The position numbers were made by a program, and so were the translations under genes. Below, piece after piece: positions 21,018-56,457 of a stretch of DNA of 64,000 nt. Position 1 is the stretch's first letter. Each line of letters starts with the position of its first letter. The stretch is taken from assembly GCA_963702845.1 (NCBI GenBank), contig OY969763.1, positions 4,672,001 to 4,736,000 of the forward strand, in the 5' to 3' direction. The notes under the pieces are model-generated. The model was not told where the DNA came from and ran no database searches. It worked only from the letters and a program-made list of their open reading frames with translations. The stretch comes from an uncultured Verrucomicrobiae bacterium. GTDB lineage: Bacteria > Verrucomicrobiota > Verrucomicrobiia > Limisphaerales > Palsa-1400.

Positions 21018-21120
21018 AATACAAACTTAATCTGCTAGTTTCTCTTGTCCAGCCAGTCAGTCAAAACCGTAAGCCGATTGGGTTTCCAACCTACGATACA
21101 GCAGAGTTCCACTCTGCGTA

Positions 21121-22227: not shown

Positions 22228-22302
22228 GATTCGATTGCGAATTTCGGATTGCGAATTGCGAATTCAAAACAATTCGAAATCCGCAATTTGCGATCCGCAA
22301 TA
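22228..22302. repeat. Heptamer-based (GATTGCG / ATCCGCA) inverted repeat element
   Basis: GATTGCGAATTTCGGATTGCGAATTGCGAATT...AATTCGAAATCCGCAATTTGCGATCCGCAAT fills the mcsA-mcsB spacer and can fold into a hairpin. Confidence 0.75.
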
Positions 22303-22303
22303 G

Positions 22304-36276: not shown

Positions 36277-36805
36277 TTTACACGCAGATTGTCGCCCCTT
36301 CGTTCGCCGCAATGGGTGAACATCAGGAAAAATCCGACAAACCGGTTCAGGCGAAAACCGGCGAGATCCCATAACCACGTCACAAGTCCGGTTCCTTAGC
36401 TCGTGACCAACGAATGTTCCAGATGACACGTATACTCAGGCTAGCAACTTCCCCGATGACAAATAGCGCACGCACCCGATTGATAGAATCGCAACCGCTT
36501 CGATATGCTCAAGAGGCGTTAAACGATAGAAGTTAGAGAGAACCCTGAGTGTGTTATGAAAGACCTCGAGACCCTACAGCGAGAGGAAACTCGCGAATCA
36601 GTTGATCCGCAATTTAGCATCACCGCGCCGGAAACCACGCGGGCCGTTCAGCAGTCAGAACCCAACAGCCACCTTCCGTATGTCGATTCATTGATCGGCA
36701 GCGAAAGCTATCGGCTCAGTCCGCTGTCTGAATGGTAATACGTTGAAGTGCCCAACCCAGGTTCGTCTTCGGACTGAGCCTGAGTTCGGCCCTCCAGCGG
36801 TCAGA

Positions 36806-37081: not shown

Positions 37082-38837
37082 TCATTTACCGCGCTTCTTC
37101 TTAAGCTCAGTCATCAAAGCGGCATACGGCAAAGTGTTAATCACGTCCGACTTCTCCAACCACCCTTTCCGCGCGACGCCCGCGCCGAGCCGCAAAAAAC
37201 CAACGTTACTATTATGGTGCGCGTCGCAATTGATGACGCATTTCACGCCTTTATCCTTGGCGTAATGCCAAAGCCGCCAATCCATATCGAACCGATGCGG
37301 GTTCGCATTCAATTCGATCCACGTCCCCGTTTCCGCGCACGCATCGATAATCGCGTGCTGGTTGACCTTGTAAGCTTCGCGCTCGAGCAACAGACGGCCG
37401 GTCAAATGGCCGATGATGTGCACATAAGGATTCTGCACTGCGCGCAAAATCCGCTTTGTCATCTCTGCCTCGCCCTGCTGAAAACTTGGCATGCACACTC
37501 GCGACGACCACATCCAACTCCGCCAGCAAGTCATCTTCAAAATCCAATGTCCCATCCGTCAGAATGTCCACCTCTGACCCGCTCAACAATCGAAACGAAA
37601 CCTTTTCCTGCGCGAGCTTTTTGTTGTAGTTCGCGAACTTCCGCAATCTGCTGCCGCACTTTCGCCGCATCCAAACCATTCGCTTGGAATGATGCCTTCG
37701 AGTGATCGGTTATCGCCCAGTAAGCAAGACCAAGATCCTGCATGTGCTCGGCCGTTTCCTCAATCGTGCAACGTCCATCGCTCCACGTCGTGTGATTGTG
37801 CAGCGAACCTTTCAACTCCGTCCATTCAAGCAGCCTCGGTAAATCACCCTTTTCCCGCGACCGACGAATTCGCCCTGGTCCTCGCGCAATTCCGGCGGCA
37901 CATACGACAATCCAAGTTTCGCAAAAACTTCTTCTTCAGTTTTACATTCAATCAGTAGCTTCGGGTCACGCGTTTCGACTTCCGATTTAAACAACCCATA
38001 CTCATTCAACCGCCACCCACGTTGAATCGCGCGCTGTCGCATGACAATATTGTGTTCCTTGCTTCCGGTAAAATACATCAGCGCATACGGAAACTCCGAA
38101 TCACTCACGACCCGCAAATCAGCCTGAATCCCACCCTCCAACACCACACTCGCTTTCGTATCGCCTTTCGCAGTGACGCTCAGCATGCCGGGTTGTTGCG
38201 TAAAAAATTCAATGATCCCCTGCGGCTTCTTGCTCGAGACCAGAAAATCAATATCGCCAATAATTTCTTTGAATCGGCGCAAACTTCCTGCCGTGCTGCA
38301 CCGAATCACATCCGGATGCGCCCGCAAATTATCCAGAATCGGTTCGGCTACCGCAAAGCATCGCCCAGCAAATGCCGGTCTGCGTATTGGCGTCGGAAAT
38401 TAATCCCCGCGCAAATATTCGTCTGCGTTTTCTCCCCAAACCCATCCAACACCGCGACTTTGCCTTCGTGACACGCCTTCTCGAGTTGCTCGATCGTTTC
38501 GATGCCGAGCTTGTCGTGCAGCGCTTTGATTTTTTTCGGGCCAAGGCCCGGAATGCCCGAGCATCGCGACCAACCCCGGCGGAATCGATGCCTTCAATTC
38601 ATCGTAATACGCCAGCTTACCCGTCTAAATCATCTCCACGATTTTTTCGCGAAGACTATCGCCCACGCCTTTGACCGGCTCAGCATCTTCCGCAAACGCT
38701 TTCTCCAGAGGAATATTGAGCCCTTGCACGGAGCGCGCCGCGTTCGAGTAGGCGCGCGATTTGAAAGGGTTTTCGCCCTTCAATTCCAGCAGCATCGCGA
38801 TTTCACTGAGGATCTCGGCAACCTGATCTTTGTTCAC
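37082..38837 (-). CDS. polX: DNA polymerase X fused to PHP domain (PolX); broken by ~6 frameshifts
   Basis: GTG start NKDQVAEIL..ENPFKSRAY; AGSLRRFKEIIGDIDFL, QADLRVV, YFTGSKEHN, LNEYGL, PPELRE; PHP motifs HNHTTWSDG, ITDHS, HLTGR, NCDAH. Confidence 0.9.
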
Positions 38838-40000: not shown

Positions 40001-40585
40001 ATGAGTCCGGCTGCCCCAAACAACAAATCAGGAACGCACCATCAATGTGGCTGCGGCGATCATGATCCTGTCGGCCGCCGCAGTTTTTTCAAGGAGGCTG
40101 CCACGATCGTGCTTGGAGCCGTCGCCGTAATCGCTCCAATCGGCGCTGCCGTTTCCGTCATGCTCGACCCGCTCCATCGAAAAGGCGGCGCAGGCAAATT
40201 TCATTCGCGTCGCGTCGCTCAATTCCGTCCCAGCCGATGGCATCCCTCGAAAATTTGCAATCATCGCTGATCGTACTGATGCCTGGAATCAATATCCCAA
40301 CACCCCTATTGGCGCAGTTTACTTCGCCGCCCGGACGAAAAACAATAGAAGCGTTCAACGTTGTCTGTCCCGCACGCAGGCGGCTTTATCGATTACAACA
40401 CGCAGCAAAATTGTTTTCTCTGCCCACTGCACGACAGCATGTTTTCTCTCGATGGTTCCATTAAAGATCCGAAAAGCCCTTCCCCGCGTCCGATGGATTC
40501 GTTGAAAGTCGAAGTTCGCAATAACGAAATCTGGGTTGCCTTCCAAAACTTCCACGCTGGCACGCGCGAGAAGATCCCGGCATGA
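40001..40585 (+). CDS. Rieske 2Fe-2S subunit of a Rieske/cytochrome b complex; frameshifted
   Basis: Tat motif RRSFFK plus TM; VVCP-HAGG box I across the frameshift, FLCPLHDSMF box II, SPSPRPMDSL; ATGA overlap with cytochrome b. Confidence 0.85.
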
Positions 40586-42366
40586 GCAAGTTACTCGACT
40601 GGCTCGACCACCGCACCGGTTGCCGCAAGCTCACGCACGAGGCGCTCTACGAAAACGTTCCCGGCGGCGCGCGCTGGCGCTACGTATGGGGCAGCACGCT
40701 CACGTTTACTTTTGCGATTCAAATCATCACTGGCCTCGCCTTGTGGGCCGCTTATTCGCCAAGTTCGCAAACCGCCTGGGAAAGCGTTTTCTACATCCAG
40801 AATCACATGAGCGGAGGATGGATTTTGCGCGGCATCCATCACTACACCGCGCAAGCGATGAACATCCTGCTCGTGCTCCATTTGATGCAGGTCATCATTG
40901 ACGGCGCTTACAAAGCTCCGCGCGAAGTGAATTATTGGTTCGGCCTCGCGCTCCTCGTTCTTGTCCTCGGACTGTCACTCACCGGCTATCTGCTGCCGTG
41001 GGATCAAAAAGGCTATTGGGCAACAAAAGTCGCCACTAACATCGCCGCCATCACCCCGTTCGTCGGAACTGCCGTTCAAAAAATTATCGTCGGCGGCGTT
41101 GACTACGGCCATCACACGTTGACCCGTTTTTTTGCACTGCACGCTGGCGTCCTTCCCGGTGCCGTCATCGTTTTGATTGTCGGCCACGTCGCGCTCTTCC
41201 GTCGTCACGGCATCACCGCAAAGAAGCCTTACCGCAAACCCGACGCAGCCTTCTGGCCTGACCAAATGCTGATCGATTCAGTCGCCTGCCTCGCCGTAAC
41301 TGCCGCCGTCATGGTGCTTGTCCTTAAAAACCACGGAGCCGAGTTAGGTCCGCCGGCAGATGCTTCAGAAAATTTCTCCGCTGCGCGTCCCGAATGGTAT
41401 TTCCTGTTCCTGTTCCAGTTCCTCAAATACTTCCCCGGCGGCACGGAAGTTCTGGGTGCGATTGCCATTCCCACCGTCATCATGCTGCTCTTGTTCCTCA
41501 TGCCCGTAATTGGTCGCAAGACCGGCGGGCACAAGTTCAACGTCGCATTATTGTTTGCGCTCATCGTCGGCGCAGCCGCGCTCACGTATGCAGCCGTTCG
41601 GGAAGATCAACATCGTCCCGAAATCATAGCTGCGAAAAATCAGGCCCAACAATCGGCCGAGCGCGTCAAAGACCTCGCTAATTCTCCGCAGGGCATCCCG
41701 CCAACCGGCGCAATTAGTCTCTTGCGCAACGATCCATTGACCCAAGGCCCAAAGCTGTTCGCTAAATACTGCGCCAGTTGCCATCGCTACGACGGCCACG
41801 ATGGCACCGGGCTGAAACTCAAGGAAGCTCCCACCGCCAGCGACTTAAAAGGTTTCGGCTCGCGCGAATGGCTCTCCGGTTTGCTCGATCCCAACCAAGT
41901 GAGCGGCGTGCAATACTTTGGCGGCACCAAATTCAAGAACGGCAAAATGGTGAAATTCGTCACCCGCAAAGTGCGCGGCTTCTCGCCAGAACAAAAAGCT
42001 GAACTCACCAACGTCATCGCCGCCATTTCCGCGGAAGCCTCACTGAAATCGCAAAAGCAACTCGATGCATCCAGCACCGCCCAAATCCAACAAGGCGTGC
42101 ACTCATTCAAAAACGGCGTCGGTTGCGCCGAATGCCACCAGTTCCATTCCAAAGACGCCGACGCCTCTGGCCCTGATCTCACCGGCTGGGGTTCGCGTGA
42201 ATGGATCGTCGGCATGATCAGCAACCCCAAATCCATTCACTACTACGCCGAAGACAACGATCGCATGCCCGCCTTCGCCGACGAAAAGATTTTGGACGCA
42301 CAATCAATCGGCTTGCTGGCCGACTGGCTTCGCGGCGAATGGTACGATCCAGCCGAAGCTCGATAA
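40582..42366 (+). CDS. Cytochrome b (b6 plus subunit IV type) fused to a di-heme cytochrome c
   Basis: RGIHHY..LHL, TGYLLPWDQKGYWA, TLTRFFALH..GH, RPEWYFLF, CASCH and CAECH, RMPAF. Confidence 0.93.
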   Translation: MSKLLDWLDHRTGCRKLTHEALYENVPGGARWRYVWGSTLTFTFAIQIITGLALWAAYSPSSQTAWESVFYIQNHMSGGWILRGIHHYTAQAMNILLVLHLMQVIIDGAYKAPREVNYWFGLALLVLVLGLSLTGYLLPWDQKGYWATKVATNIAAITPFVGTAVQKIIVGGVDYGHHTLTRFFALHAGVLPGAVIVLIVGHVALFRRHGITAKKPYRKPDAAFWPDQMLIDSVACLAVTAAVMVLVLKNHGAELGPPADASENFSAARPEWYFLFLFQFLKYFPGGTEVLGAIAIPTVIMLLLFLMPVIGRKTGGHKFNVALLFALIVGAAALTYAAVREDQHRPEIIAAKNQAQQSAERVKDLANSPQGIPPTGAISLLRNDPLTQGPKLFAKYCASCHRYDGHDGTGLKLKEAPTASDLKGFGSREWLSGLLDPNQVSGVQYFGGTKFKNGKMVKFVTRKVRGFSPEQKAELTNVIAAISAEASLKSQKQLDASSTAQIQQGVHSFKNGVGCAECHQFHSKDADASGPDLTGWGSREWIVGMISNPKSIHYYAEDNDRMPAFADEKILDAQSIGLLADWLRGEWYDPAEAR

Positions 42367-42428
42367 CTTTGGAGTTTAGAGCTTTTGCGAAACCAACTAC
42401 GTCCACCAAACGTCTGTTTCAAAAACTC

Positions 42429-43742
42429 ATGCACCGCCTAATAGCTGCCCTCCTCCTGGCAATCGCCTTCGCGCCCAATGTCAGCGCCGCCGCCAAAAAA
42501 CCAAACATCCTCTTCATCTTGTGCGACGACATGGGCTACGAATGTCTGAACTGTTACGGCGGCACTTCCTACAAAACGCCGAACATCGACACCTTGGCCG
42601 CTTCGGGAATTCGCTTTCGCAACGCCTACGCCACTCCGCTCTGCTCGCCGTCGCGTGTTGAGTTGATGACGGGGCGATACGGTTTTCGCACCGGCTGGAT
42701 TAACCTGATCGGGCGCGGCGACGATGCGATGGAATATTTCGAACCGAATAAAGAACGCACCTTCGGCCACGTCTTGAAATCGGCGGGGTACGCCACCGCT
42801 CTCGCCGGTAAATGGCAGCTCTGCAACTTCACCGATCATCCCGATCACGTGAACAAATGCGGCTTCGACGAATACTGCTGTTGGACCTGGCAACTAAACG
42901 GGAAGCGAACCTCCCGTTATTGGGAGCCGTCCATTTGGCAGAATGGCAAAGAAAAGAAAGATCTTCAGGAGCCGTATGGCGAAGATATTTTTTGTAATTT
43001 CCTGATCGATTTCATGAAGCGTCATCGTGACGAACCGTTCTTTGCTTATTATCCGATGGTGCTCGTTCACGAGCCGCACACGGCCACGCCCGACAGCAAA
43101 GGTGCGACCAAAGCCCAAAAAAGCGGCAAAGCCGAGAAGGGCGGCGGCGTGGAAGGTAAGCGCCGACGTGCCACGAAGTTATTTCCCGGCATGGTGCAAT
43201 ACATGGACAAAACCGTCGGACGCCTCATGGCCGCATTGGATGAACTCGGCCTCCGCGACAATACAATTATCGTCTTCACCGGCGACAATGGCACAGATCG
43301 CAGTGTCTTTTCGAAAATTGGCGACGTCACCGTGCAAGGCGGTAAAGGAACGGTCGCTGAATTCGGCACCCACGTTCCTTTCATTGTGAGTTGGAGAGGC
43401 ACGATCAAACCGGCGCAGACCAAAGATGATTTGATCGACTTCAGCGACGTGCTCCCGACCATCGCCGAACTCGGCGGCGCGAAGCTACCCAACGCGACCA
43501 TCGACGGCAAAAGTTTCGCCCGCCAACTAACGACCGAAACCGCACCGGCCCGCCAATGGATTTTCAGTCAACTTGGTCATAAGAAACTCGCGCGCGACCA
43601 ACGTTTCATGCTGCACGACGACGGAAGCATCTACGACGTGATTCACGATCCGTTTGAAAAGAAAAACTTGGCGGACAGCAAAGACGCGGAGGTCACGACA
43701 TCAAAAGCGCGCCTGCAAAAAGTGCTGACGGACCTGCGCTGA
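42429..43742 (+). CDS. Sulfatase (formylglycine-dependent S1 family), secreted
   Basis: Signal peptide, KPNILFILCDDMG, CSPSR motif, LMTGRY, GKW, FTGDNG, GGKG. Confidence 0.93.
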   Translation: MHRLIAALLLAIAFAPNVSAAAKKPNILFILCDDMGYECLNCYGGTSYKTPNIDTLAASGIRFRNAYATPLCSPSRVELMTGRYGFRTGWINLIGRGDDAMEYFEPNKERTFGHVLKSAGYATALAGKWQLCNFTDHPDHVNKCGFDEYCCWTWQLNGKRTSRYWEPSIWQNGKEKKDLQEPYGEDIFCNFLIDFMKRHRDEPFFAYYPMVLVHEPHTATPDSKGATKAQKSGKAEKGGGVEGKRRRATKLFPGMVQYMDKTVGRLMAALDELGLRDNTIIVFTGDNGTDRSVFSKIGDVTVQGGKGTVAEFGTHVPFIVSWRGTIKPAQTKDDLIDFSDVLPTIAELGGAKLPNATIDGKSFARQLTTETAPARQWIFSQLGHKKLARDQRFMLHDDGSIYDVIHDPFEKKNLADSKDAEVTTSKARLQKVLTDLR

Positions 43743-43749
43743 TTCGCGT

Positions 43750-43769
43750 GTGGTTCCGGCTTCAGCCGG
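43750..43769 (+). repeat. REP-like hairpin
   Basis: GTGG-TT-CCGGCT-TC-AGCCGG between convergent genes. Confidence 0.5.
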
Positions 43770-43803
43770 CATCGTGCGTAACAGGAGATGATTGGAAAAG
43801 GAA

Positions 43804-44196
43804 TTACGGCTTAGCGGCGAGCGGTGCACGCAACGCCATCTTGATCGTCTGAATCAACGTCGACGGCGCGTAAGGTTTCTGCAGAAATTGAAATCCCTCT
43901 GGCAGCGGCAATCCTTTGCACGCTTCATCGTAGCTGTAGCCGGTTGTGAAAACCACTTTCAACTCTGGGTTTTCACCAATGAACTTGTCCGCCAGTTCGC
44001 GCCCGTTCATGCCATCCGGCAGCATCAAGTCGGTCAACAGCAAATCAATCTGTCCCTTCTTCTGAGCCCATTTCTCCAAAGCCATCGCACCCGACGACGC
44101 CTCCACCACCCGGCAGCCGAAACGTTCGAGAACCTTTCGGACCAGTAAGCGCAAAGACTGCTCGTCTTCGACAAGAAACACTGTCGGTGTGTGCAT
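43804..44196 (-). CDS. Stand-alone response regulator receiver protein
   Basis: LVEDE, LLTDLMLP, FTTGY, LQKPY. Confidence 0.92.
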   Translation of the reverse strand: MHTPTVFLVEDEQSLRLLVRKVLERFGCRVVEASSGAMALEKWAQKKGQIDLLLTDLMLPDGMNGRELADKFIGENPELKVVFTTGYSYDEACKGLPLPEGFQFLQKPYAPSTLIQTIKMALRAPLAAKP

Positions 44197-44213
44197 AAAA
44201 ACGGGTTTAAGAT

Positions 44214-44229
44214 AGCAGCGAACGTGCCA
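44214..44229 (-). promoter_or_regulatory. Putative sigma54 promoter of the receiver gene
   Basis: Minus strand TGGCACGTTCGCTGCT, GG-N10-GC, about 18 bp before the ATG. Confidence 0.65.
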
Positions 44230-44266
44230 TTCGCTTGACGGAGAACCGAAAACAAGACCTTGTCAA

Positions 44267-45472
44267 TCAACCACATCGCTCAATCACTGCCACGATTCCC
44301 TGCCCCACCCCAATGCACATCGCGCAAAGTGCGTAACGTGCGTTGGTCCGCTGCAGTTGCCAGGTCGCCGTCGTGATCAACCGCGCCCCGCTCATGCCGA
44401 GAGGATGTCCCAACGCAATCGCCCCGCCTTGCGGATTGATGCGAGGATCATTGTCAGCCAACCCAAGCTCCCGCATAGACGCCAACGCTTGCGAAGCAAA
44501 CGCTTCGTTGAACTCGAGAATATCCATTTGTTCCAGGGACATCTTCAAACGCGCCAAAAGTTTTCGCGTCGCCGGCACCGGCCCAATGCCCATGATGCGC
44601 GGGGAAACACCTGCAGCGGCAACACCCAACACGCGCGCTTTGGGCACGAGATTGAATTGCTTCACCGCCGACTCACTTCCAATCAGCAACCCCGCCGCAC
44701 CGTCATTAATTCCAGATGCGTTCCCAGCCGTGACCGTCCCATCCCGTCGCACGATAGGTTTCAGTTCTGCCAATTTTTCAAGCGTAGTCGCGCGCGGATG
44801 TTCATCACGTTTTACAACGATTGGTTCACCTTTGCGTTGCGGCAAACAAACCGAAATCAGTTCGGCATCGAACAATCCGTTCGCCTGCGCGGTGGCGGCT
44901 TTGGTCTGACTCCAAAAAGCAAACTTGTCCTGGTCTTCGCGACTGATCCCAAATTTCGCCACTAAATTCTCAGCCGTCTCCGCCATCGAATCCGTCCCGT
45001 AAAGCTCCTGCATTCGTTTGTTCACGAAATGCCAACCGAGCGTCGTGTCATAAATCTCAGCCTGTCGCGAAAACGCCTCCGTTGGTTTCGGCATCACATA
45101 AGGCGCGCGCGACATGCTTTCCACTCCGCCCGCAATCATCAAATCAGCTTCACCCGCTGCGATCGCCCGCGCCGCATAACCCACCGCATCCATCCCCGAA
45201 CCACACAACCGATTCACCGTGCAACCAGAAATTGATTCAGGAAGTCCGGACAACAACGCCGCCATTCGAGCCACGTTTCGGTTGTCCTCACCAGCTTGAT
45301 TCGCACATCCTAAAACCACGTCGTCCACCGCCGTCCAATCAACGCTCGGATTGCGCTCCATCAATGCCTTGATTGGCAATGCCGCCAGGTCATCGGCACG
45401 AATGCTCGACAACGCGCCGCCATAACGCCCAATCGGCGTCCGCACCGCATCGCAAATATAGGCTGCGTTCAT
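44267..45472 (-). CDS. pcaF: 3-oxoadipyl-CoA thiolase-like (PcaF/PaaJ subfamily)
   Basis: RTPIGRYGGALSSIRADDL, GCANQAGEDNRNVARM, NRLCGSG, IYDTTLGW, NEAFA, GAIALGHPLGMSGAR, MCIGVGQG. Confidence 0.88.
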   Translation of the reverse strand: MNAAYICDAVRTPIGRYGGALSSIRADDLAALPIKALMERNPSVDWTAVDDVVLGCANQAGEDNRNVARMAALLSGLPESISGCTVNRLCGSGMDAVGYAARAIAAGEADLMIAGGVESMSRAPYVMPKPTEAFSRQAEIYDTTLGWHFVNKRMQELYGTDSMAETAENLVAKFGISREDQDKFAFWSQTKAATAQANGLFDAELISVCLPQRKGEPIVVKRDEHPRATTLEKLAELKPIVRRDGTVTAGNASGINDGAAGLLIGSESAVKQFNLVPKARVLGVAAAGVSPRIMGIGPVPATRKLLARLKMSLEQMDILEFNEAFASQALASMRELGLADNDPRINPQGGAIALGHPLGMSGARLITTATWQLQRTNARYALCAMCIGVGQGIVAVIERCG

Positions 45473-46815
45473 TTTGTCGTTGCCGTCGTCTTTACGTCGG
45501 GAAGTTTAGAATCCTTTACTTGTTTGAGCCCCGTCTTTAGCGCAACGCAAAGCTCATCGATTTCGGTCTCTGTCATCGGCGTCGACAGCGTCCCAGTGCC
45601 GGTCCACATGAGCATCACATTCTTGACGAAGAGATGATCCACTAGCGTATGCAAGCACTTCGCCTGTTCCGGCGTTGCATACGCTTCGCGATAATTGTTC
45701 GGCGGTTCAGTTTTGAAATGGATTCGGAACATCGAACCCGCTCCAGTGACGCACGCCGGAACGCCAGCTTCACAGATCGTTGCCGCAATTTGCGATCGCG
45801 CTTGGGCGCCAAGTTTGTTTAATCGTGCAACAGCCGGACGATCGAACGCATTCATAGCGGCGAGGCCTGCTACCATCGTGATGGGATTCGCCGAGAACGT
45901 GCCCGAGTGCGGGAACAAAACGCGTTCCAACAATGGATTGAATACATCCATCACATCCGCGCGGCCGGCGATGGCACCAACGGGAAAACCGCCGCCGATG
46001 ATCTTGCCCAGTGCGGTCAAATCCGGCTCCAAGCCATACCATTGCAGCGCGCCGCCGTATTCGCTACGAAACGTGATCACTTCGTCAAACACCAGCAACG
46101 CATCGTGCGTCGTCGTCCATTTGCGCAACGCATTCACAAAATCCTGCGTCGCCGGGATAACACCGACCCGGTGCGGCATAGGATCGATCAGCACGCACGC
46201 AAGGTCATCGGCGTGCTCATCGAGGAGCGCAAGTGCGGTTTCCGGATCGTTGAACGGAAGAACGACAACTTCATCCAATGCCGATTGCGGCGTCCCGTGT
46301 ACCACCGGCACGCTCCGTGGATGATTGGCATCACCCCAATTCGCGGGGTGCGCCGATTGGCTCGTCTCCGCATAGTCGTAGATGCCGTGATACGCGCCTT
46401 CGACCTTCGCGATCTTCGGACGGCCGGTAAATGCACGCGCCGCTTTCAAGCAACACATCACCGCCTCTGTCCCGGAATTAACAAATCGAATTTTCTCAAA
46501 CGCCGTCGAGCGTGAACACATGTATTCCGCCAACAAAATTTCCTCTTCCGTCGCATACGAATACGCGGTGCCGCGTTGCAATTGCTTTGTCACCGCCTCG
46601 ACGATCGCCGGATGCGAATGGCCATGGATCAGCGACGTCATGTTGTTCGCAAAATCGATGCGTGTGACGCCTTCAATATCGGTGAACCGACAGCCTTTGC
46701 CGTGACTGGTATAAATCGGATGCGGCTTGCTCAGCACGGCGTTCCGACTCACGCCGCCGGGCAAAACGCGAACGGCACGCTGATACAGTTGACTGCTCTT
46801 CGATGAGTGGCTCAC
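45469..46815 (-). CDS. Class III PLP aminotransferase, HemL-related beta-amino-acid transaminase type
   Basis: PGGVSR (Arg where HemL has NSPVR), RFVNSGTEA, AYHG, FDEVITFR, ALGKIIGGGFPVGA, HSGTFSANP. Confidence 0.88.
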   Translation of the reverse strand: MSHSSKSSQLYQRAVRVLPGGVSRNAVLSKPHPIYTSHGKGCRFTDIEGVTRIDFANNMTSLIHGHSHPAIVEAVTKQLQRGTAYSYATEEEILLAEYMCSRSTAFEKIRFVNSGTEAVMCCLKAARAFTGRPKIAKVEGAYHGIYDYAETSQSAHPANWGDANHPRSVPVVHGTPQSALDEVVVLPFNDPETALALLDEHADDLACVLIDPMPHRVGVIPATQDFVNALRKWTTTHDALLVFDEVITFRSEYGGALQWYGLEPDLTALGKIIGGGFPVGAIAGRADVMDVFNPLLERVLFPHSGTFSANPITMVAGLAAMNAFDRPAVARLNKLGAQARSQIAATICEAGVPACVTGAGSMFRIHFKTEPPNNYREAYATPEQAKCLHTLVDHLFVKNVMLMWTGTGTLSTPMTETEIDELCVALKTGLKQVKDSKLPDVKTTATTK

Positions 46816-47480
46816 GACTTCATCCTCGAAAGTAAATTGGTTCCAGTCCGCTTCTGCACCTGGTCGAAGTTCACACCAGGAGCAAGGTCGGCCACGATGA
46901 GACCTTCGGGTGTAACATCGATGACCGCAAGGTTCGTGTATATACGATCAACGACTGCTTTGCCAGTCAGCGGATACGTGCAGTGCTCAACGATTTTTGG
47001 CTCCCCGTTTTTGGTGGTGTGCTCGGTGATGACAAAAATTTTCTTAACGCCCCCGACCAGATCCATTGCGCCACCCACCGCTGGAATCGCAACCGGCTCA
47101 CCTGTTGACCAATTAGCCAAATCACCCGTTGCTGAAACCTGCATCGCGCCCAGCACGCAAATATCGATGTGCCCGCCACGAATCATCACGAAACTATCCG
47201 CATGATGAAAATAGGACGCCCCCGCAATCGCCGTCACCGCTTTTTTGCCGGCGTTGATCAACTCCGGGTCTTCGTTGCCCGGAATCGGAGCGGGTCCCAT
47301 CCCGAGCAATCCATTTTCTGTTTGAAAAATTACTTCGCGCCCGGCCGGGACGTATTGCGCAACCAATTCCGGAATTCCAATTCCAAGATTCACATACGCG
47401 CCGTCCTGAATGTCCGCAGCGACACGTTGCGCCATCTGCTCACGCGTCCACCCGTAAGTTGATTTTGCCACAGCGCTCAT
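46812..47480 (-). CDS. pcaJ: 3-oxoacid CoA-transferase subunit B (PcaJ-like)
   Basis: YVNLGIGIP, QTENG (catalytic Glu), LINAGK, MIRGGHID, GDLANW, AVGGAMDL. Confidence 0.88.
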   Translation of the reverse strand: MSAVAKSTYGWTREQMAQRVAADIQDGAYVNLGIGIPELVAQYVPAGREVIFQTENGLLGMGPAPIPGNEDPELINAGKKAVTAIAGASYFHHADSFVMIRGGHIDICVLGAMQVSATGDLANWSTGEPVAIPAVGGAMDLVGGVKKIFVITEHTTKNGEPKIVEHCTYPLTGKAVVDRIYTNLAVIDVTPEGLIVADLAPGVNFDQVQKRTGTNLLSRMKS

Positions 47481-48187
47481 GGATAACTCCTGTCTTCTCT
47501 TACCAATTGCGATTCCTGCGCCGGATTCGCAACCACAATGAGCCGGTTCACAAAAATACCGGGCGTCACAATGTCTTCCGGATCAAGTTCGCCCGCTTCC
47601 ACAATTTCTTTCACTTGCACGATTGCGATCTTCGCCGCCGTGCACATGATCGGCCCAAAATTCCGCGCCGTCTTGCTGTAGACAAGATTACCATGTCGGT
47701 CCGCCTTCTCCGCCTTGATCAGAGCAAAGTCGGCAATCAACCCGCGTTCCATCACGTATTCGCGCTCGCCGAACGTGCGCGATTCTTTTCCATTGGCGAG
47801 CACCGTCCCGACCGATGTCGCCGTGTAAAATGCCGGAATCCCAGCGCCTCCCGCACGAATGCGCTCAGCCAACGTCCCTTGTGGCACAAGCTCCAGCTGA
47901 ATCTCGCCTTTGCGATACAGCTCGGGAAACACCATCGAATTCGCGCTCCGCGGATACGAACAAATCATCTTCGCGACCTGTCGATTTGCAATCAACGCCG
48001 CCAAGCCAACGCGTCCGCTGCCGGTGTTGTTGCTTACGATCGTCAGATTCTTCGCCCCTCGATCCACTAGTGCATGGATCAACTCAATCGGACTGCCGGC
48101 CTCACCAAACCCGCTGATCATAATCGTCGCGCCATCGTGGATGTCCGCGACGGACGAAGCCAACGACGTTGCGCGTTTGTTAATCAT
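47477..48187 (-). CDS. pcaI: 3-oxoacid CoA-transferase subunit A (PcaI-like)
   Basis: Start MINKRATS (48187); GFGEAGSP, SNNTG, ICSYPR, PQGTLAERIRAGGAGIPAFYT, TARNFGP, VTPGIFV. Confidence 0.88.
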   Translation of the reverse strand: MINKRATSLASSVADIHDGATIMISGFGEAGSPIELIHALVDRGAKNLTIVSNNTGSGRVGLAALIANRQVAKMICSYPRSANSMVFPELYRKGEIQLELVPQGTLAERIRAGGAGIPAFYTATSVGTVLANGKESRTFGEREYVMERGLIADFALIKAEKADRHGNLVYSKTARNFGPIMCTAAKIAIVQVKEIVEAGELDPEDIVTPGIFVNRLIVVANPAQESQLVREDRSYP

Positions 48188-49847
48188 CGCAAGCGCTCCT
48201 GGCAGGTCGCACGTCCTTCGCCGCGGTTGCAGATGCACGGCCTGCCTTTTGTTGTGCGACGTACTTTTCCTGCACGCGGCTCAACTTCTCTTCGATCTGA
48301 TGCAACTCGCCCTCAAAGAAAAACTCCTTCGTATCCAAAGGCACCAACTTATCGACGCGCGTCTCTGTCTCGTCGAACTTCGCGAGGAACACCTTGTCCA
48401 TCCAGGCCATGTTGCGGCTCTCATTGAACTTCAGCGCAAACGCTTTTTGCCCGTTCACCTCCGCCGTGCCCAGGATGGAAAGTTTCCCAGCCGACGTCGT
48501 CATGGTTATGTAACGTGACGGACGATGGAATGACGACAGCGACCGATAAATCAGGTTCGCGACCTTCTCGATGGACGCCAACGGCGCGGTAAAATAGTGA
48601 TATTCGCCCGTGTTGCGTGCGCAATACATCGAATGAAACCGGATGTTCAGCACCGCCAAAATATGCGCGAGATCAACCCAGTTTTGCGCCGAACGCTGCA
48701 CGTCTACCTTGCCGGCCTTGTCCGTATAAAGGCTGACGTGATTCATGATCGGGCTTTGGCTCCGAATGACCACGCCATAGTTCTGCAACCGGCGCATCGC
48801 AGCGAGCGTTGTTGGATTCAATAACTCACGCGGTGTCGAAATGTGAGCCACCCACGAAAGCTGCACGCCATTCTCATGCACCTTCTGGAACAACTTGAGA
48901 ACCTTTTCGTATTTGTTGCTCAAAATCAGTTCCGGTTGAAACGTCAAGGCGCGCGACGCGATACGGATCGTGCGAATGTGCAACAACCGCGGGTCCTCCA
49001 AAATCGGCAAAACATATTGCTCCAGCCGCTCGTATGGAATGTAAGCCGCATCACCGCCGGTGATCAGCAAGTCACTAACTTCCTTGTGCTCGCGCAGATA
49101 CTCGTGGATTTGCGCGATGTCCTCTTGGATGAACATGTCGTGATCACCGCGCACCTGTGCGTGACGGAAACAATACGTGCAAAACGCAAAACAAGTCTGC
49201 GTGCTTTGGTCGAAAACCAATTGCGTCTGCGGATATTTATGCTGACTACCTTCCAGCAACTCGATTCCGCCATTATCCCGTTCAATCCACGGCTTGTTGA
49301 GCAACTGATGCCCGTCGTGTGGATTGGTTTCCTCCATGTATTCGTCAATCACCCGCTTTCGATCCGCCTCGGTCTTCGCAAGCAGATACGCCTCCGTCAC
49401 CTTCTTACGCATCATCGTCGGTTGCGGGAAAACGAGCTGATACATCGGATCATGCTCGTAATCATTCCAATTAATTGTGTTCAGAATGTGCCGCGTCGCC
49501 TTGAACCGGTAAACTTCCACGAACAATTCGCGCTCCGTAATCCGGTCGAGCTTGACCCCATTCTTCGCCAGGATCGCCACCACTTCCCGGAACCCTTGCA
49601 ACTCCGAATACTGCGCGCGGTCATTGAACAAAAACGGGCGCGCTTCCAACAACCCAGAGTGCTGCGGATAAGCTACTTGCAACCGGCTCAGCACACCGTG
49701 CGGCAGAAGATTTTCCGTATCGATGATCGTGCGGACTTCATTCGAATACTCATAACGTTTGAGCATGCCAGCGCGTTGCTCCGCGCTCACCGTCGAACCA
49801 ATGGTCGCCCGGCCGCCCTTTTCGGGCTCAACAGTAGAATTTTTCAT
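48180..49847 (-). CDS. KamA-family radical SAM / PLP 2,3-aminomutase-like protein
   Basis: DPMYQLVFPQ, QHKYP, CFAFCTYCFR (CxxxCxxC), LITGGD, IRTIRIASR, RSQSPIM, SAGK (position of the PLP lysine). Confidence 0.85.
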   Translation of the reverse strand: MKNSTVEPEKGGRATIGSTVSAEQRAGMLKRYEYSNEVRTIIDTENLLPHGVLSRLQVAYPQHSGLLEARPFLFNDRAQYSELQGFREVVAILAKNGVKLDRITERELFVEVYRFKATRHILNTINWNDYEHDPMYQLVFPQPTMMRKKVTEAYLLAKTEADRKRVIDEYMEETNPHDGHQLLNKPWIERDNGGIELLEGSQHKYPQTQLVFDQSTQTCFAFCTYCFRHAQVRGDHDMFIQEDIAQIHEYLREHKEVSDLLITGGDAAYIPYERLEQYVLPILEDPRLLHIRTIRIASRALTFQPELILSNKYEKVLKLFQKVHENGVQLSWVAHISTPRELLNPTTLAAMRRLQNYGVVIRSQSPIMNHVSLYTDKAGKVDVQRSAQNWVDLAHILAVLNIRFHSMYCARNTGEYHYFTAPLASIEKVANLIYRSLSSFHRPSRYITMTTSAGKLSILGTAEVNGQKAFALKFNESRNMAWMDKVFLAKFDETETRVDKLVPLDTKEFFFEGELHQIEEKLSRVQEKYVAQQKAGRASATAAKDVRPARSACDD

Positions 49848-49861
49848 TTGGATCGGTTATC

Positions 49862-49887
49862 TGATTGTTTAGCTACCTAATCAATCA
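49862..49887. promoter_or_regulatory. Candidate operator (11-bp inverted repeat) upstream of the aminomutase operon
   Basis: TGATTGTTTAG-CTAC-CTAATCAATCA, one mismatch, 15-40 bp from ATG 49847. Confidence 0.5.
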
Positions 49888-50030
49888 TCTGCACCGACCG
49901 CAGCTCGGGCTAACCCTTTATTGCCATTGCTTTGACATAAATTGTCCGCACCAAAAACCCAGGGCCAGTAGGCCAAGTAGCACCCAACCTTGACCACACA
50001 CTGCGCGCTGGATAGCGTCCACGAATTCCT

Positions 50031-52046
50031 ATGCTTTTACTCCGTGCTGCGGTCTCGCTGTTGATTCTTGGTTCGGCATTAGCGTCAGAGAGCGGCGCGT
50101 CGGCGGAAGTTGTGTTGGCGCGATCAAAGCACTCGACGTGGGTTATCGAACCGATTTCTACAAATGTCGCCGGCGTCACGTTTGCGACGGAGGAGTTGCA
50201 AAAATATTTACGGCAAATGGGTGGAGCAAAATTGGCGATCGTTTCAAAGGCCGCTCAACGCAAAGCGATTGTTATCGGGTTGCGTGCCGATTTTCCGACA
50301 GACGTTGAACACGTTTTGCCACCGCAAAAGCCCGGATACGATGGCTATGCAATTTCCATTCGAGACGACGGCATCGTGATCGCGGGCGACAACGGCCCGG
50401 GCTGCATTTACGGCGTCTACGACCTTCTTGAGCATCTCGGCTGCCGCTGGTTTTACCCCACCATCGATCCGAAGGACCCCGAAGTTGTTCCAAAATTTTC
50501 CACCGTCTCACTAAAAACAAATGCATGGGCAATCGCCTCGCCCATTCGCAACCGGATTTGCAACGGGGACGCGTGGTTTTTCGAAATGGATTATTCCGCA
50601 GCGCTCAAGGAAATGGATTGGGCGATGAAGAATCGGTACAACGCAATGGGCTGGCAGGCCGCCGTGAACACCAGCAAACGATCGTTGTTGCAACAATACA
50701 ACGATCTTGGCCGGGCCGGAATCACCAGCGGAATCGAAAAGCGCGGCATGTTCATTCATGGCCCGGCACATTCGTTCGATCATTTTTTGAAATCGGACAT
50801 TTACTTCGCGAAGCACCCCGAATGGTTCGGCATGCGTAACGGAAAACGCGTTCCGCAGGCAGCGCTCGGAGCCCAGTTTTGCTGGTCCAATCCCGAAGCG
50901 CGCGCCCAGTTTATTGCCAACGCGGAGGCGTTCATCACCAATGCGCCCGACATCAAAATTTTTTGCACGGTCCCGTTTGATGGCGGTGTGGCGTGCGATT
51001 GCCCGGAGTGCCGCAAGCAAGGACCGAGCAATTTGTTGATGGTGTTGATGAAGGAATTGATCGAGCGGTTGCAGCGGTCGCGACCAGATGTGCAGGTCGA
51101 AACCGTCGGCGGCTACGGAGCAGTGCCGAACCCGCCGTCAAACCTCGCGATCATTCATCCGAAACAGCGGATCGTCTGGGCTCAGTGGGGCCGCCACCAC
51201 GGTATCGGCTACGACGATGCGAAATACGAGCGGCACAACCTGGACCTTTGGCGCGTTGCAGCAAAAGGCGGGCTGACGATTTGCCAATATTACACCGACA
51301 ACTTCGCCGAACCGTGGGTGATGGGTCCTTTCACCACGGCAATGCAAAGTGACCGGCGCTATTTTCTGAAGCACAAGGTCGACGCGGTTTATATGTTGAT
51401 GTATTCGCCCGGATACTGGTGGAACCACAGTTTGAACGGTTACATCGCAGGGCACTGCTTTTACGATGCCAGTCTTTCTCCGCGGGACGCGATTTCCGAT
51501 TACGCCCTGCATTATTTTGGAACGAACGCGGGACCGGCTTTGGCCAAATATTACGGAGAATGGGCGGACAACATTGAGTTGAGTTATCGCCTACGTGGTG
51601 AAGCGCGGAAACAGGACAGAATAACACTGGCACGAGAGCGCCAGGATCTGATTGCGCCAGCCGTTGCTGCGGCGAGAACTTCAGTCGAACGCTATCGCGT
51701 GGCAAAAGTAGAAATGTTGCATGGTCTGGCCGAGCAGTTGTACGAGTTGCATCGGCAGCACGATTTGGTGAGGTGGTTACGGATGCAGGGAAAATTTGAT
51801 GACGCTACACGGATGCTGACGAAATCCCGCACGACTGCGGATGAGACGTTGAAGCTATTCCTCAAAATCGCCAACACGAAGGAGGGCTTGATCGACGCCA
51901 ATGAGGTGCGCGGATTCATCACGCTGGCGATGAAAAATTGGATTGAGGAAGAGGCAAAAGCGATTGCCGCAAAAGACCGCACGCGCCCGGCATGGTTGGA
52001 CCGCGATCTTGCGGAAACCGAAGTTAAGCCCGGTGAACCGTTTTAA
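50031..52046 (+). CDS. Secreted DUF4838-like putative glycoside hydrolase
   Basis: Signal peptide; FATEELQKYL...DGYAI...GCIYGVYDLLEHLGCRWFYP N-domain; HSF...YFAKHPEWF...QFCWSNP; DG..CDCPEC. Confidence 0.72.
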   Translation: MLLLRAAVSLLILGSALASESGASAEVVLARSKHSTWVIEPISTNVAGVTFATEELQKYLRQMGGAKLAIVSKAAQRKAIVIGLRADFPTDVEHVLPPQKPGYDGYAISIRDDGIVIAGDNGPGCIYGVYDLLEHLGCRWFYPTIDPKDPEVVPKFSTVSLKTNAWAIASPIRNRICNGDAWFFEMDYSAALKEMDWAMKNRYNAMGWQAAVNTSKRSLLQQYNDLGRAGITSGIEKRGMFIHGPAHSFDHFLKSDIYFAKHPEWFGMRNGKRVPQAALGAQFCWSNPEARAQFIANAEAFITNAPDIKIFCTVPFDGGVACDCPECRKQGPSNLLMVLMKELIERLQRSRPDVQVETVGGYGAVPNPPSNLAIIHPKQRIVWAQWGRHHGIGYDDAKYERHNLDLWRVAAKGGLTICQYYTDNFAEPWVMGPFTTAMQSDRRYFLKHKVDAVYMLMYSPGYWWNHSLNGYIAGHCFYDASLSPRDAISDYALHYFGTNAGPALAKYYGEWADNIELSYRLRGEARKQDRITLARERQDLIAPAVAAARTSVERYRVAKVEMLHGLAEQLYELHRQHDLVRWLRMQGKFDDATRMLTKSRTTADETLKLFLKIANTKEGLIDANEVRGFITLAMKNWIEEEAKAIAAKDRTRPAWLDRDLAETEVKPGEPF

Positions 52047-54838: not shown

Positions 54839-55078
54839 TTAGAGAAGTCCTGACGTTTTGAGTTGTCCGCGAAAATCGCTCACATCGCGCAAGGCCTTAT
54901 CGATCGTCACGTCGTAATCCAGCGCAAGTTGCTCGACAATGAATGCGTCACTTTGATCTTGCATCAGCCCGCGCAAAATCGTCAACCCCATCGGGCTGAC
55001 CTGGAAGCTGTTGCCCGTGGTTGGATCGAAAACCAACCCATCTTCGTTCACCGCGAGTTTAGAAAGTGTTTTCATCAT
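54839..55078 (-). CDS. Stand-alone PqqD-family (RiPP recognition element) protein
   Basis: 79 aa; LAVNEDGLVFDPTTGNSFQVSPMGLTILRGL...IVEQLALDYDV..DKALRDVSDFRGQLKTSGLL fits the three-strand, three-helix PqqD pattern. Confidence 0.8.
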   Translation of the reverse strand: MMKTLSKLAVNEDGLVFDPTTGNSFQVSPMGLTILRGLMQDQSDAFIVEQLALDYDVTIDKALRDVSDFRGQLKTSGLL

Positions 55079-55224
55079 TTCTGGCGCTACATTGAATTCA
55101 CACCGTTAATGATTTATTTTGCCACAAGAGGAAAATTGTTAAGACCGTGTAAAAAATTTCGTGGGAGGAGGTTCCTACCCCACAAACAAAACGGAATAAA
55201 CCATCACCCCACCGAGTCCAACCA

Positions 55225-56457
55225 ATGTTAATGAAATTCCTTTCGACTCTGGTAATCTGCGCAATCACCTGCCTGACCGCCCTCGCTGCAGACGCCCCAA
55301 AATACCTCTTCTTCAACATCGCTCCCGGCGCAGAACATTTTTACACCGAACAATCCATCCGCAATGCGTTCGACGAACTGCCCAAAACTCTCCACGTCAT
55401 CGACAATCCAAACCTCCGCGTCGGCCTCTCATTCATCTTCAGCACACTGCAAACGCCAACTGAACAAATCGCCCAGCGCATCCGCACCGCACTCGATTGC
55501 AGCGAAAAATCAAGTGTCCCCGTCCTGATCGCGCTCGACGGCCAAAACTGGTGGGAAAGCCGTCCTGATTTATGGAACTGGTGGGACCCGACCAAACCCG
55601 GCTACAACCCGAGCAACATTTTCAACGTCGAATGGACCGGCTGGAGCCCGACCAACGCCATCAAAATAAGCTGGCGCAATTGGGGCACCATCCATCGCGT
55701 CGCACCCGCCCAAAACATTGCGAGCCCCAACATCCTTGCCCTTCACCTGCAGGCCTTGCGCGATCTCATTCCCATCATGGTCGAGTGGCATCGCAAACTT
55801 CCCGACGACCGCAAGTGGCTGTTCGGCGGAGTCAAACTCGGTTGGGAAACCAGCATCGGCTACAACGCATATTATTATCCCGACGGCAATCGCTACCTCG
55901 ATCAGTGGCCAACCGATTCCTCACACGACCCTGCAACCGTGCTCAACTGGAACAAAGGCTTGAGCGGCGGCGCGGTTCAAATCGGATACGCAGCCTTGAC
56001 CAGTGCTCGATTGAAAGACCACGGCGCAATCACGCGCGACGACATCGGCCTCGTCACCGCGTGGTATTTTGAAAAACTCTGCCGCACCGCACACGAAGCC
56101 GGCCTCACGCGCGAAGTTACTTTCACCCATCAAGGCGGAACCTACGAACCGTGGCAGAAGCAGCTCCCCTTTTGGCCCGCCATCAACCAATGGTCCACCC
56201 CAGGCTGGAGCTTCTACGGACTCGCCCCCAAAGACGCGGGCCCGCTCGACAAAGAATTGGACAATCAAAACCAACAACAATGGGCCGCTTGCGAATGGTG
56301 GTGGGGCGCCGGCAACGCCACCGACTGGGAAGACCATTTCGCGCGCACCCTCCATTTCCACGACTGCCGCTTCATCGACGTCTACAACTGGACCCACATG
56401 TTCAGCAACGATGTCGCCGGCCAGCGCGCCGTGCGAAGTCTAGTCGCAAGGTGGTAA
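55225..56457 (+). CDS. Secreted Trp-rich hypothetical protein, possibly a TIM-barrel glycoside hydrolase
   Basis: Signal peptide ...LTALA|AD; typical codon usage; GVKLGWETS and WAACEW could carry catalytic Glu residues. Confidence 0.7.
   Translation: MLMKFLSTLVICAITCLTALAADAPKYLFFNIAPGAEHFYTEQSIRNAFDELPKTLHVIDNPNLRVGLSFIFSTLQTPTEQIAQRIRTALDCSEKSSVPVLIALDGQNWWESRPDLWNWWDPTKPGYNPSNIFNVEWTGWSPTNAIKISWRNWGTIHRVAPAQNIASPNILALHLQALRDLIPIMVEWHRKLPDDRKWLFGGVKLGWETSIGYNAYYYPDGNRYLDQWPTDSSHDPATVLNWNKGLSGGAVQIGYAALTSARLKDHGAITRDDIGLVTAWYFEKLCRTAHEAGLTREVTFTHQGGTYEPWQKQLPFWPAINQWSTPGWSFYGLAPKDAGPLDKELDNQNQQQWAACEWWWGAGNATDWEDHFARTLHFHDCRFIDVYNWTHMFSNDVAGQRAVRSLVARW

Follow-up and report, generated by a model that had tools for sequence, protein, structure and literature searches.

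A candidate operon for 2-aminoadipate catabolism through 3-aminoadipate and 3-oxoadipate in an uncultured Verrucomicrobiae bacterium

Introduction

L-2-Aminoadipate is a common product of lysine breakdown via 2-aminoadipate semialdehyde, and AmaB (L-piperideine-6-carboxylate dehydrogenase) is an enzyme that makes it. In its known catabolism, 2-aminoadipate is transaminated to 2-oxoadipate, which is then carried on to glutaryl-CoA or converted by HglS to 2-hydroxyglutarate. Here we analyzed five adjacent minus-strand genes of an uncultured Verrucomicrobiae bacterium (assembly GCA_963702845.1, contig OY969763.1), located at positions 44267 to 49847 of a 64,000-nucleotide stretch that we call the window. 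They encode a KamA-like radical S-adenosylmethionine (SAM) protein, the two subunits of a 3-oxoacid CoA-transferase, a class-III aminotransferase and a thiolase. A prediction made earlier from the DNA of the window, referred to below as the original prediction, had proposed that these genes form a catabolic route with L-2-aminoadipate as the most economical substrate. Our comparison of the five genes with protein families, solved structures and other genomes indicates that the operon probably serves the catabolism of L-2-aminoadipate via 3-aminoadipate, 3-oxoadipate and 3-oxoadipyl-CoA to succinyl-CoA and acetyl-CoA.

Results

The cassette and its occurrence

The five genes, in the order in which they would be transcribed, and the region upstream of them are listed below (PLP, pyridoxal 5'-phosphate; GSAM, glutamate-1-semialdehyde aminomutase).

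48180..49847, minus strand: KamA-like radical-SAM/PLP gene, 555 aa; proposed 2-aminoadipate 2,3-aminomutase
47477..48187, minus strand: 3-oxoacid CoA-transferase subunit A (PcaI/ScoA type), 236 aa from the ATG at 48187
46812..47480, minus strand: 3-oxoacid CoA-transferase subunit B (PcaJ/ScoB type), 222 aa; TIGR02428 match
45469..46815, minus strand: class-III (GSAM-like) aminotransferase, 448 aa, GTG start; proposed 3-aminoadipate transaminase
44267..45472, minus strand: 3-oxoadipyl-CoA thiolase (PcaF type), 401 aa; TIGR02430 match
49848..50030, no strand: divergent intergenic region of 183 bp upstream of the kamA-like gene; presumed promoter region, judging from the gene layout

Each gene runs into the next. 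The stop codon of the kamA-like gene overlaps the pcaI ATG at 48187 by 8 nt (ATGATTAA), and ATGA overlaps join pcaI to pcaJ (47477-47480) and the aminotransferase gene to the thiolase gene (45469-45472). At the junction of pcaJ with the aminotransferase gene the overlap is GTGA (46812-46815), the start codon being GTG and not ATG. The original prediction had reported five overlapping minus-strand genes with ATGA at every junction after the first; all five open reading frames (ORFs) lie where it had placed them and the overlaps of 8, 4, 4 and 4 nt are as described, so that only the sequence of this one junction had to be corrected. The longest ORF for pcaI is 47477-48238 (253 aa), from the first GTG at 48238. 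The protein starting at the ATG has the median length among relatives in other loci, and the TIGR02429 alignment, which begins at residue 18 of the 253-aa ORF, agrees with this start. As part of the whole 2-aminoadipate reading, the overlaps suggest that the five genes probably constitute one operon. A search of positions 43500-50300 for a riboswitch or other RNA gave no Rfam match at E values up to 1. A promoter and terminator scan gave counts no higher than shuffled expectation and no sigma-70-like site in 49848..50030.

To find relatives of the cassette, we scored 7999 candidate proteins, of which 1296 match the 555-aa enzyme at E ≤0.001. The best 120 relatives are 62-85% identical to it, have 465-577 aa and are named "hypothetical" or "lysine 2,3-aminomutase" in their sources. 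A KamA-like relative is encoded by 319 stretches of a one-genome-per-species collection; 80 of these loci were examined, and the partner genes were mapped in them by tblastn of the window's five proteins. In 67 of the 80 loci, all four partners were colinear with the KamA-like gene, with strand and order unchanged. A contig end truncates eight more loci, and in these all that fits stands in order. Among the 72 loci that are not cut, 71 retain at least kamA-pcaI-pcaJ-aminotransferase. The thiolase gene is displaced in L060 and does not occur within 7 kb in L064, L074 and L077, and the KamA-like gene stands alone in L071. The five-gene arrangement is thus far beyond chance. Conserved linkage of the KamA homologue with pcaIJ, the transaminase and pcaF was one of the tests that had been named for the original prediction; the linkage passed it, and every other computational test named there came out favorably as well.

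Carrier loci bear about ten phylum-level labels. They come from Verrucomicrobiota, Planctomycetota, Sumerlaeota, Eisenbacteria, Krumholzibacteriia, Edwardsbacteria and SAR324, and also from Gamma- and Betaproteobacteria, Desulfuromonadales and other Deltaproteobacteria, Bacteroidales and an actinomycete; by record title, there are cultured carriers in Shewanella (several species, with S. schlegeliana JCM 11561 and S. atlantica HAW-EB5 among them), Photobacterium, Pseudoalteromonas denitrificans (DSM 6059) and Motiliproteus (sp. MSK22-1). Of 200 other genomes sampled from the bacterium's own phylum, Verrucomicrobiota, none had the KamA-like gene. This combination of many phyla with absence from the sampled relatives implies that the module is patchy and probably mobile between lineages, and the five genes appear to move between phyla as a unit.

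Two of the exceptional loci show further features. In Litorilituus lipolyticus (L071:9926-11593) the KamA-like gene is accompanied by a divergent LysR regulator, with none of the four partners within 10 kb. In a member of the Rhodocyclaceae (L074:5582-11511) the kamA-like, pcaI, pcaJ and aminotransferase genes are followed by an AmaB homologue in the usual place of pcaF. We also considered a gene for a single-domain response-regulator receiver (43804-44196, minus strand), which lies 70 nt downstream of the thiolase gene on the same strand. It was excluded from the unit because tblastn found no counterpart of it in the 80 loci.

The enzymes of the cassette

Family models of Pfam and NCBIfam confirmed the earlier assignments of all five products as KamA-like, PcaI/J, class-III aminotransferase and PcaF thiolase, at levels that differ among the proteins. 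The 555-aa protein gave a weak Radical_SAM match in Pfam and weak matches to every KamA-family model in NCBIfam. It did not reach the cut-off of the family model TIGR00238 (69.5 bits versus 199.2), nor those of the named-enzyme equivalogs for lysine, arginine and glutamate 2,3-aminomutase and EpmB (51.8-69.6 bits versus 369-650). When the family profile was compared with the PDB, the sole sequence-level match was KamA of Clostridium subterminale (2A5H, E 2.3e-12). The fold pointed to the same protein. With an AlphaFold model (pLDDT 76, pTM 0.79), the top Foldseek matches were 2a5h_B (E 7.8e-11) and 2a5h_A (3.5e-10), followed by an entry at 6.3e-4, so that KamA leads the other fold matches by seven orders of magnitude in E-value at about 18% identity.

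The residues of the KamA chemistry are retained. The cysteines of the CxxxCxxC motif (C219/C223/C226) are invariant in 20 of 20 family sequences and align with C125, C129 and C132 of 2A5H. The GGD motif for SAM at 264-266 is likewise retained and invariant, and the invariant R228 aligns with KamA R134, the α-carboxylate arginine. For the C-terminal residues, mapping to 2A5H was bridged via the canonical KamA of the same genome (L090). A deeper alignment was needed because hhalign of the shallow family alignment (A1) stopped at residue 371; the 44-sequence alignment of the wider clade (A2) matched the canonical KamA with an hhalign probability of 99.8. A phmmer search of residues 300-480 against the PDB returned spurious pentatricopeptide-repeat matches only. 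In the bridged mapping, the invariant K455 aligns with K362 of the canonical KamA, which in turn aligns with K337 of 2A5H, the PLP-binding lysine. R411, invariant in 20 of 20 family sequences, aligns with KamA D293, and T448 aligns with D330 at a position that is Thr or Ser across the family. Asp293 and Asp330 of KamA bind the ε-ammonium group of lysine, and this pair of lysine 2,3-aminomutase proper (TIGR03820; EC 5.4.3.2) is absent here, with Arg and Thr/Ser instead. Thus, the 555-aa enzyme is predicted to have the machinery of a PLP/radical-SAM aminomutase without the lysine-binding site of KamA. Arg411 is consistent with, although not proof of, a distal carboxylate on the substrate.

The enzyme represents one branch of a large KamA-like clade that has no characterized member, so that further unknown aminomutase specificities are likely. 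Proteins of this wider clade have about 410-530 aa and are 22-36% identical to the 555-aa enzyme, which is the first row of alignment A2. Most of them carry Arg at the Asp293 position, and they look like aminomutases. The canonical KamA of the same genome is a separate protein (C1:5373002-5373979; L090:1339-2574, minus strand), which scores 459.9 bits to 2A5H and retains D293, D330 and K337. It falls slightly below the AblA equivalog cut-off (491.8 versus 525.4), and a 412-aa ORF adjoining it has no Pfam or NCBIfam match. It may supply β-lysine for an osmolyte or have some other role.

For the aminotransferase, the best NCBIfam model was hemL (TIGR00713), and its equivalog cut-off was not reached (341.4 versus 527.3). 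A true hemL is encoded elsewhere in the genome (C1:2179785-2181050, 628.7 bits). These two scores rule out a case that had been named as refuting the original prediction, namely that the aminotransferase is a true glutamate-1-semialdehyde aminomutase. Its closest solved relative is 6K8H, at 408.4 bits over 427 residues, followed by ForI at 378.6 bits; glutamate-1-semialdehyde aminomutases score at most 238, and the β-transaminases 2YKU (Mesorhizobium) and 4AO9 (Variovorax) score 232.7 and 223. 6K8H is an omega-transaminase of Sphaerobacter thermophilus that is reported to be active on aromatic, branched and aliphatic β-amino acids and on a γ-amino acid; its Thr and Asn contact PLP, and its Arg is the proposed carboxylate binder (PMC10589169). 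The catalytic K271 and residues T306, N58 and R24 of the cassette enzyme match K282, T317, N70 and R36 of 6K8H. We infer that the aminotransferase resembles the β-amino-acid transaminases, and its predicted role would be on 3-aminoadipate. A third GSAM-like class-III aminotransferase paralogue lies at C1:4359550-4360851, about 0.36 Mb from the cassette, and matches hemL at 336 bits, below the cut-off.

The two subunits of the CoA-transferase are encoded by adjoining genes and exceed the cut-offs of their models: subunit A that of TIGR02429 (pcaI_scoA, 342.9 versus 128.5) and subunit B that of TIGR02428 (pcaJ_scoB, 308.1 versus 243.55). The closest solved protein to subunit A is subunit A of a succinyl-CoA:3-ketoacid CoA-transferase (SCOT; 3cdk, 245.7 bits). 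The thiolase passed the PcaF equivalog TIGR02430 (681.9 versus 597) and NF006551 (704.6 versus 605), and it is the sole PcaF-level match in the genome. Against the PDB it scored 535-545 bits with β-ketoadipyl-CoA thiolases (545 with 6pca) and at most 326 with chains named acetyl-CoA acetyltransferase or acetoacetyl-CoA thiolase, except for 1ulq, a "putative acetyl-CoA acetyltransferase", at 471.7.

Proposed route and source of its substrate

Taken together as four steps, the enzymes would act as follows. The KamA-like enzyme would shift the amino group of L-2-aminoadipate from C2 to C3, giving 3-aminoadipate, and the GSAM-like aminotransferase would convert 3-aminoadipate to 3-oxoadipate. The CoA-transferase, assigned at the family level, would activate 3-oxoadipate to 3-oxoadipyl-CoA with succinyl-CoA as the donor, and the thiolase, assigned at the equivalog level, would cleave 3-oxoadipyl-CoA to acetyl-CoA and succinyl-CoA, which would regenerate the CoA donor. 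The net conversion would be that of 2-aminoadipate, an amino acceptor and CoA to succinate, acetyl-CoA and an amino acid. Such a route would need no oxygen, contain no net redox step and no decarboxylation, and lose no carbon. In the genome studied here, it would take up the product of a pair of LAT and L-piperideine-6-carboxylate dehydrogenase encoded 2.7 Mb away.

The ORFs of the 80 loci were clustered to find recurrent neighbors, and several of these are linked to 2-aminoadipate. Neighboring aldehyde dehydrogenases pass the AmaB equivalog (817.8 and 794.9 versus 730). In 10 of the 80 loci, tblastn detected AmaB homologues inside the 10 kb that were fetched; they are 55-66% identical to the query from L014 and 56-71% identical to the AmaB of the genome studied here. 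The AmaB gene is co-directional with and directly upstream of the aminomutase gene in L026, L046, L054 and L070, and it directly follows the aminotransferase gene in L074. In a Verrucomicrobiae locus (L003), LAT and AmaB genes are divergent from the cassette and adjoin it, and their products are 68% and 71% identical to the copies of the genome studied here, in which LAT (573.7 versus 520.8) and AmaB (815.6 versus 730) both exceed their cut-offs and are encoded in one minus-strand cluster. Saccharopine-dehydrogenase-like genes occur in 4 of the 80 loci, and the protein from L054, used as a query, had no match in the genome studied here. A pipecolate-oxidase-like gene in L029 scored 458.6 against a cut-off of 600. 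Divergent LysR regulators were found in 35 of the 80 loci (family 5 in 22 and family 6 in 13). Other recurrent neighbors are polar-amino-acid ABC transporters with a Lys/Arg/Orn-type binding protein, LysE exporters, BCCT transporters and hotdog thioesterases.

At the level of whole genomes, AmaB was over the cut-off in 27 of the 80 carriers (13/40 plus 14/40), compared with a background of 6 of 200 genomes sampled from the bacterium's phylum and 1 of 14 genomes used as controls. Because related genomes are not independent, this excess is to be read as an enrichment and not as a statistical test. A two-by-two table of cassette against AmaB is impossible within the phylum, as none of the 200 genomes carries the cassette, and the comparison is one of background frequencies.

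A set of loci from Motiliproteus and Halopseudomonas (L018, L020, L022, L047 and L038) has a surrounding of its own. These loci share a gene set 3-10 kb upstream of the cassette, which consists of a BCCT transporter, a PreA-like DHO_dh/4Fe-4S protein, an EthD protein, a cupin and a hotdog thioesterase, and they carry a class-I/II aminotransferase gene after pcaF. The upstream set may feed in material derived from a betaine-like or cyclic precursor.

Several observations weigh against 2-aminoadipate as the substrate, or against the route as a whole. AmaB is not over the cut-off in 53 of the 80 carrier genomes, 6 of which have near-cut-off or truncated matches, and all Shewanella, Photobacterium and Pseudoalteromonas carriers are among those without it; such carriers would have to obtain 2-aminoadipate by uptake or from another enzyme, or else their substrate differs. 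In the genome studied here, the LAT and AmaB genes lie about 2.7 Mb from the cassette, and the 64-kb window contains no regulator or transporter that points to the substrate. At the Asp293 position, 24 of 38 members of the wider clade likewise have Arg, which is thus too common there to identify an acidic substrate by itself. The confidence of the structural model is low precisely around the cluster loop (residues 198-242). TIGR02429 and TIGR02428 do not separate PcaIJ, acting on 3-oxoadipate, from ScoAB, acting on acetoacetate, and the closest solved CoA-transferases are SCOT enzymes of the acetoacetate type. Finally, 3-aminoadipate was not known as a metabolic intermediate in the literature that we searched. 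Overall, the original choice of 2-aminoadipate as the substrate gains from the AmaB and LAT neighbors, from the genome's own LAT and AmaB and from the replacement of Asp293 by Arg, and it loses from the presence of AmaB over the cut-off in only 27 of 80 carriers.

Alternative explanations

We considered four other explanations of the same genes. A non-acidic substrate that leads to a monocarboxylic 3-oxoacid is unlikely, and it survives best among the four. Leucine, 2-aminobutyrate, norvaline or phenylalanine could be such a substrate, or lysine, via β-lysine to 3-oxo-6-aminohexanoate. This explanation would agree with the reported range of 6K8H, the nearest solved transaminase, which takes aliphatic, branched and aromatic β-amino acids, and with the activity of ScoAB-type transferases on simple 3-oxoacids. 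It would also fit the majority of carrier genomes, in which AmaB is not over the cut-off, and the occurrence of Arg at the Asp293 position as a feature of the wider clade. On the other hand, it accounts neither for a thiolase at the PcaF level nor for AmaB, LAT and saccharopine-dehydrogenase-like neighbors. The lysine variant faces in addition the loss of both Asp residues for the ε-amine and the presence of a separate canonical KamA in the genome.

It is quite unlikely that the radical-SAM protein is not an aminomutase at all and performs other radical chemistry on the precursor of a 3-oxoadipate-like acid, with a different role for the transaminase. In the family of this protein, the PLP lysine, α-carboxylate Arg, GGD motif and cluster cysteines known from KamA persist without variation, KamA leads the fold matches by a wide margin, and the obligatory partner of the protein is a probable transaminase of the β-amino-acid type. 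The protein nevertheless lies below every curated KamA-family cut-off, as do 12 of 12 sampled members of the surrounding clade with no characterized member, and relative to KamA its family has about 100 N-terminal residues and an insertion of 12 residues of its own.

The same logic applied to L-glutamate would give β-glutamate, 3-oxoglutarate and 3-oxoglutaryl-CoA, the last being cleaved to malonyl-CoA and acetyl-CoA. Alternatively, 3-oxoglutarate could decarboxylate to acetoacetate, which would yield two acetyl-CoA, or the cassette could serve the use of β-glutamate. With both lysine-binding Asp residues lost, an acidic amino acid of any kind would fit, the CoA-transferase stands no farther from the acetoacetate-type SCOT enzymes than from anything else, and glutamate 2,3-aminomutase is a known activity of the KamA family (TIGR04368). 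Glutamate 2,3-aminomutase itself would have Lys and Asn at the two Asp positions, which did not enter into this assessment. However, the cassette enzyme reaches 52.7 bits on that equivalog, where the cut-off is 650, the thiolase is a PcaF equivalog and not an acetoacetyl-CoA thiolase, and the recurrent neighbors produce 2-aminoadipate and not glutamate. Simpler and universal catabolic routes for glutamate also exist, and we regard glutamate as a very unlikely substrate.

Least probable by our assessment, and hardly to be expected, is a biosynthetic direction from succinyl-CoA and acetyl-CoA through 3-oxoadipyl-CoA, 3-oxoadipate and 3-aminoadipate to 2-aminoadipate, for lysine or a secondary metabolite. 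The reactions of thiolases, CoA-transferases, transaminases and KamA-type mutases are all reversible in principle, but the neighbors are of the catabolic and uptake type (divergent LysR in 35 of 80 loci, amino-acid ABC transporters, LysE, AmaB, LAT and the pipecolate-oxidase-like gene) and no genes of α-aminoadipate-pathway lysine biosynthesis stand beside the cassette in the loci examined.

Other genes of the window

The window has 44 non-overlapping ORFs with a length of 110 aa or more, and 41 of them were searched for Pfam domains (the three left out are 31680-32021, 36009-36383 and 54863-55231); two of the searched ORFs, 42438-42893 and 43067-43510, lie on the minus strand within the sulfatase ORF 42201-43742, which is on the plus strand. 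The original prediction had listed genes that are missing from the window, and its list is borne out at the Pfam level for the 41 ORFs: there are no ring-cleavage genes, no kamDE, kdd or kce, no epmA or efp, and no ablB.

Some genes far from the cassette deserve mention. A 4173-aa ORF (3367-15888, minus strand) with Big_3_5 Ig-like repeats and HYR-like 4-cysteine domains is probably a giant surface protein. At 18504-22813 on the minus strand, genes for a ClpC-type AAA+ ATPase, a McsB-like ATP:guanido phosphotransferase and a McsA-like UVR-motif protein stand in a row and are predicted to be a Gram-positive-style protein-arginine-kinase quality control system. Three ORFs cover their families only in part, namely a P-type ATPase without most of its hydrolase domain (32030-33466), a fragment of an FAD-linked oxidase (35220-35978) and a PolX thumb alone (37812-38327), and may be pseudogenes or frameshifts. 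Finally, a 594-aa fusion (40582-42366, plus strand) joins the N- and C-terminal parts of cytochrome b with two c-type cytochrome domains, and is followed by the sulfatase gene (42201-43742).

Discussion

The catabolism of L-2-aminoadipate through 3-aminoadipate and 3-oxoadipate, which we favor for this operon, would have consequences beyond the locus itself. From the sequence comparisons, we see a little better than an even chance that the operon represents an oxygen-independent and redox-neutral branch of lysine catabolism that has not been described before, with a 2-aminoadipate 2,3-aminomutase, 3-aminoadipate as an intermediate and a non-aromatic entry to the end of the β-ketoadipate pathway, in the form of a module that moves between phyla and whose aminomutase belongs to a clade with further aminomutase specificities. 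A route from 2-aminoadipate through an aminomutase to 3-oxoadipate was not found in the literature searched, a search whose reach did not extend to most subscription journals. In that search, 3-aminoadipic or β-aminoadipic acid turned up solely in metabolite lists (such as that of PMC12664060) and in the title of a reference, where it looks like a misprint for α-aminoadipic acid (PMC9854754).

If the proposal is true, the radical-SAM/PLP aminomutases, a small group, would gain a new activity, 3-aminoadipate would join the known intermediates, and lysine carbon would have a new way into central metabolism that requires neither oxygen nor decarboxylation nor a flavin dehydrogenase. The fate of 2-aminoadipate in organisms that have LAT and AmaB but no known outlet would also be explained. 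Annotations as "lysine 2,3-aminomutase", "glutamate-1-semialdehyde aminomutase" and "aromatic β-ketoadipate" would have to be corrected, which concerns no fewer than 319 species genomes and over a thousand protein clusters. The enzymes could serve the production of β-amino dicarboxylic acids, and, as cultured carriers exist, the claim can be tested directly.

Compared with known systems, the cassette combines familiar parts in an unfamiliar order of use. With KamA (2A5H) the radical-SAM enzyme has in common the fold, the CxxxCxxC and GGD motifs and the equivalents of R134 and K337. It differs from KamA in its low identity and scores below the cut-offs, in the replacement of Asp293 and Asp330, in the extra N-terminus and insertion, and in its linkage to pcaIJ, a transaminase and pcaF. 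Among the β-amino-acid omega-transaminases, to which the cassette aminotransferase was compared (6K8H, 2YKU and 4AO9), it would be distinguished by its proposed substrate, an aliphatic dicarboxylic β-amino acid.

The lower β-ketoadipate pathway shares the PcaIJ and PcaF families with the cassette, PcaF at the equivalog level. The cassette lacks the aromatic upstream branch, and its feed would be an amino acid delivered by an aminomutase and a transaminase. PcaD was not over its cut-off in the genome studied here (best match 52 versus 255.85), and the genome-wide search did not extend to PcaB, PcaC, PcaGH and CatABC.

The fermentation of lysine by clostridia (KamA, KamDE, Kdd, Kce and Kal) resembles the proposed route in its KamA-type start, in the cleavage of a β-keto acid and in products at the level of acetyl-CoA. 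In the cassette, however, the β-amino group would be removed by transamination and not by dehydrogenation after a second mutase, and the cleavage would be performed by a CoA-transferase and a thiolase. Kce (BKACE, PF05853) was not found in the genome studied here, which is 89.76% complete; KamDE and Kdd were not searched genome-wide.

HglS (PF07063), an enzyme of the known catabolism of 2-aminoadipate, was likewise not found in this 89.76% complete genome, in a search that did not include glutaryl-CoA dehydrogenase or 2-aminoadipate transaminase. With that catabolism the proposed route has in common the starting compound and the upstream pair of LAT and AmaB. The two differ in what follows, since the proposed route would proceed without oxidative decarboxylation and would deliver all six carbons of 2-aminoadipate as succinate and acetyl-CoA.

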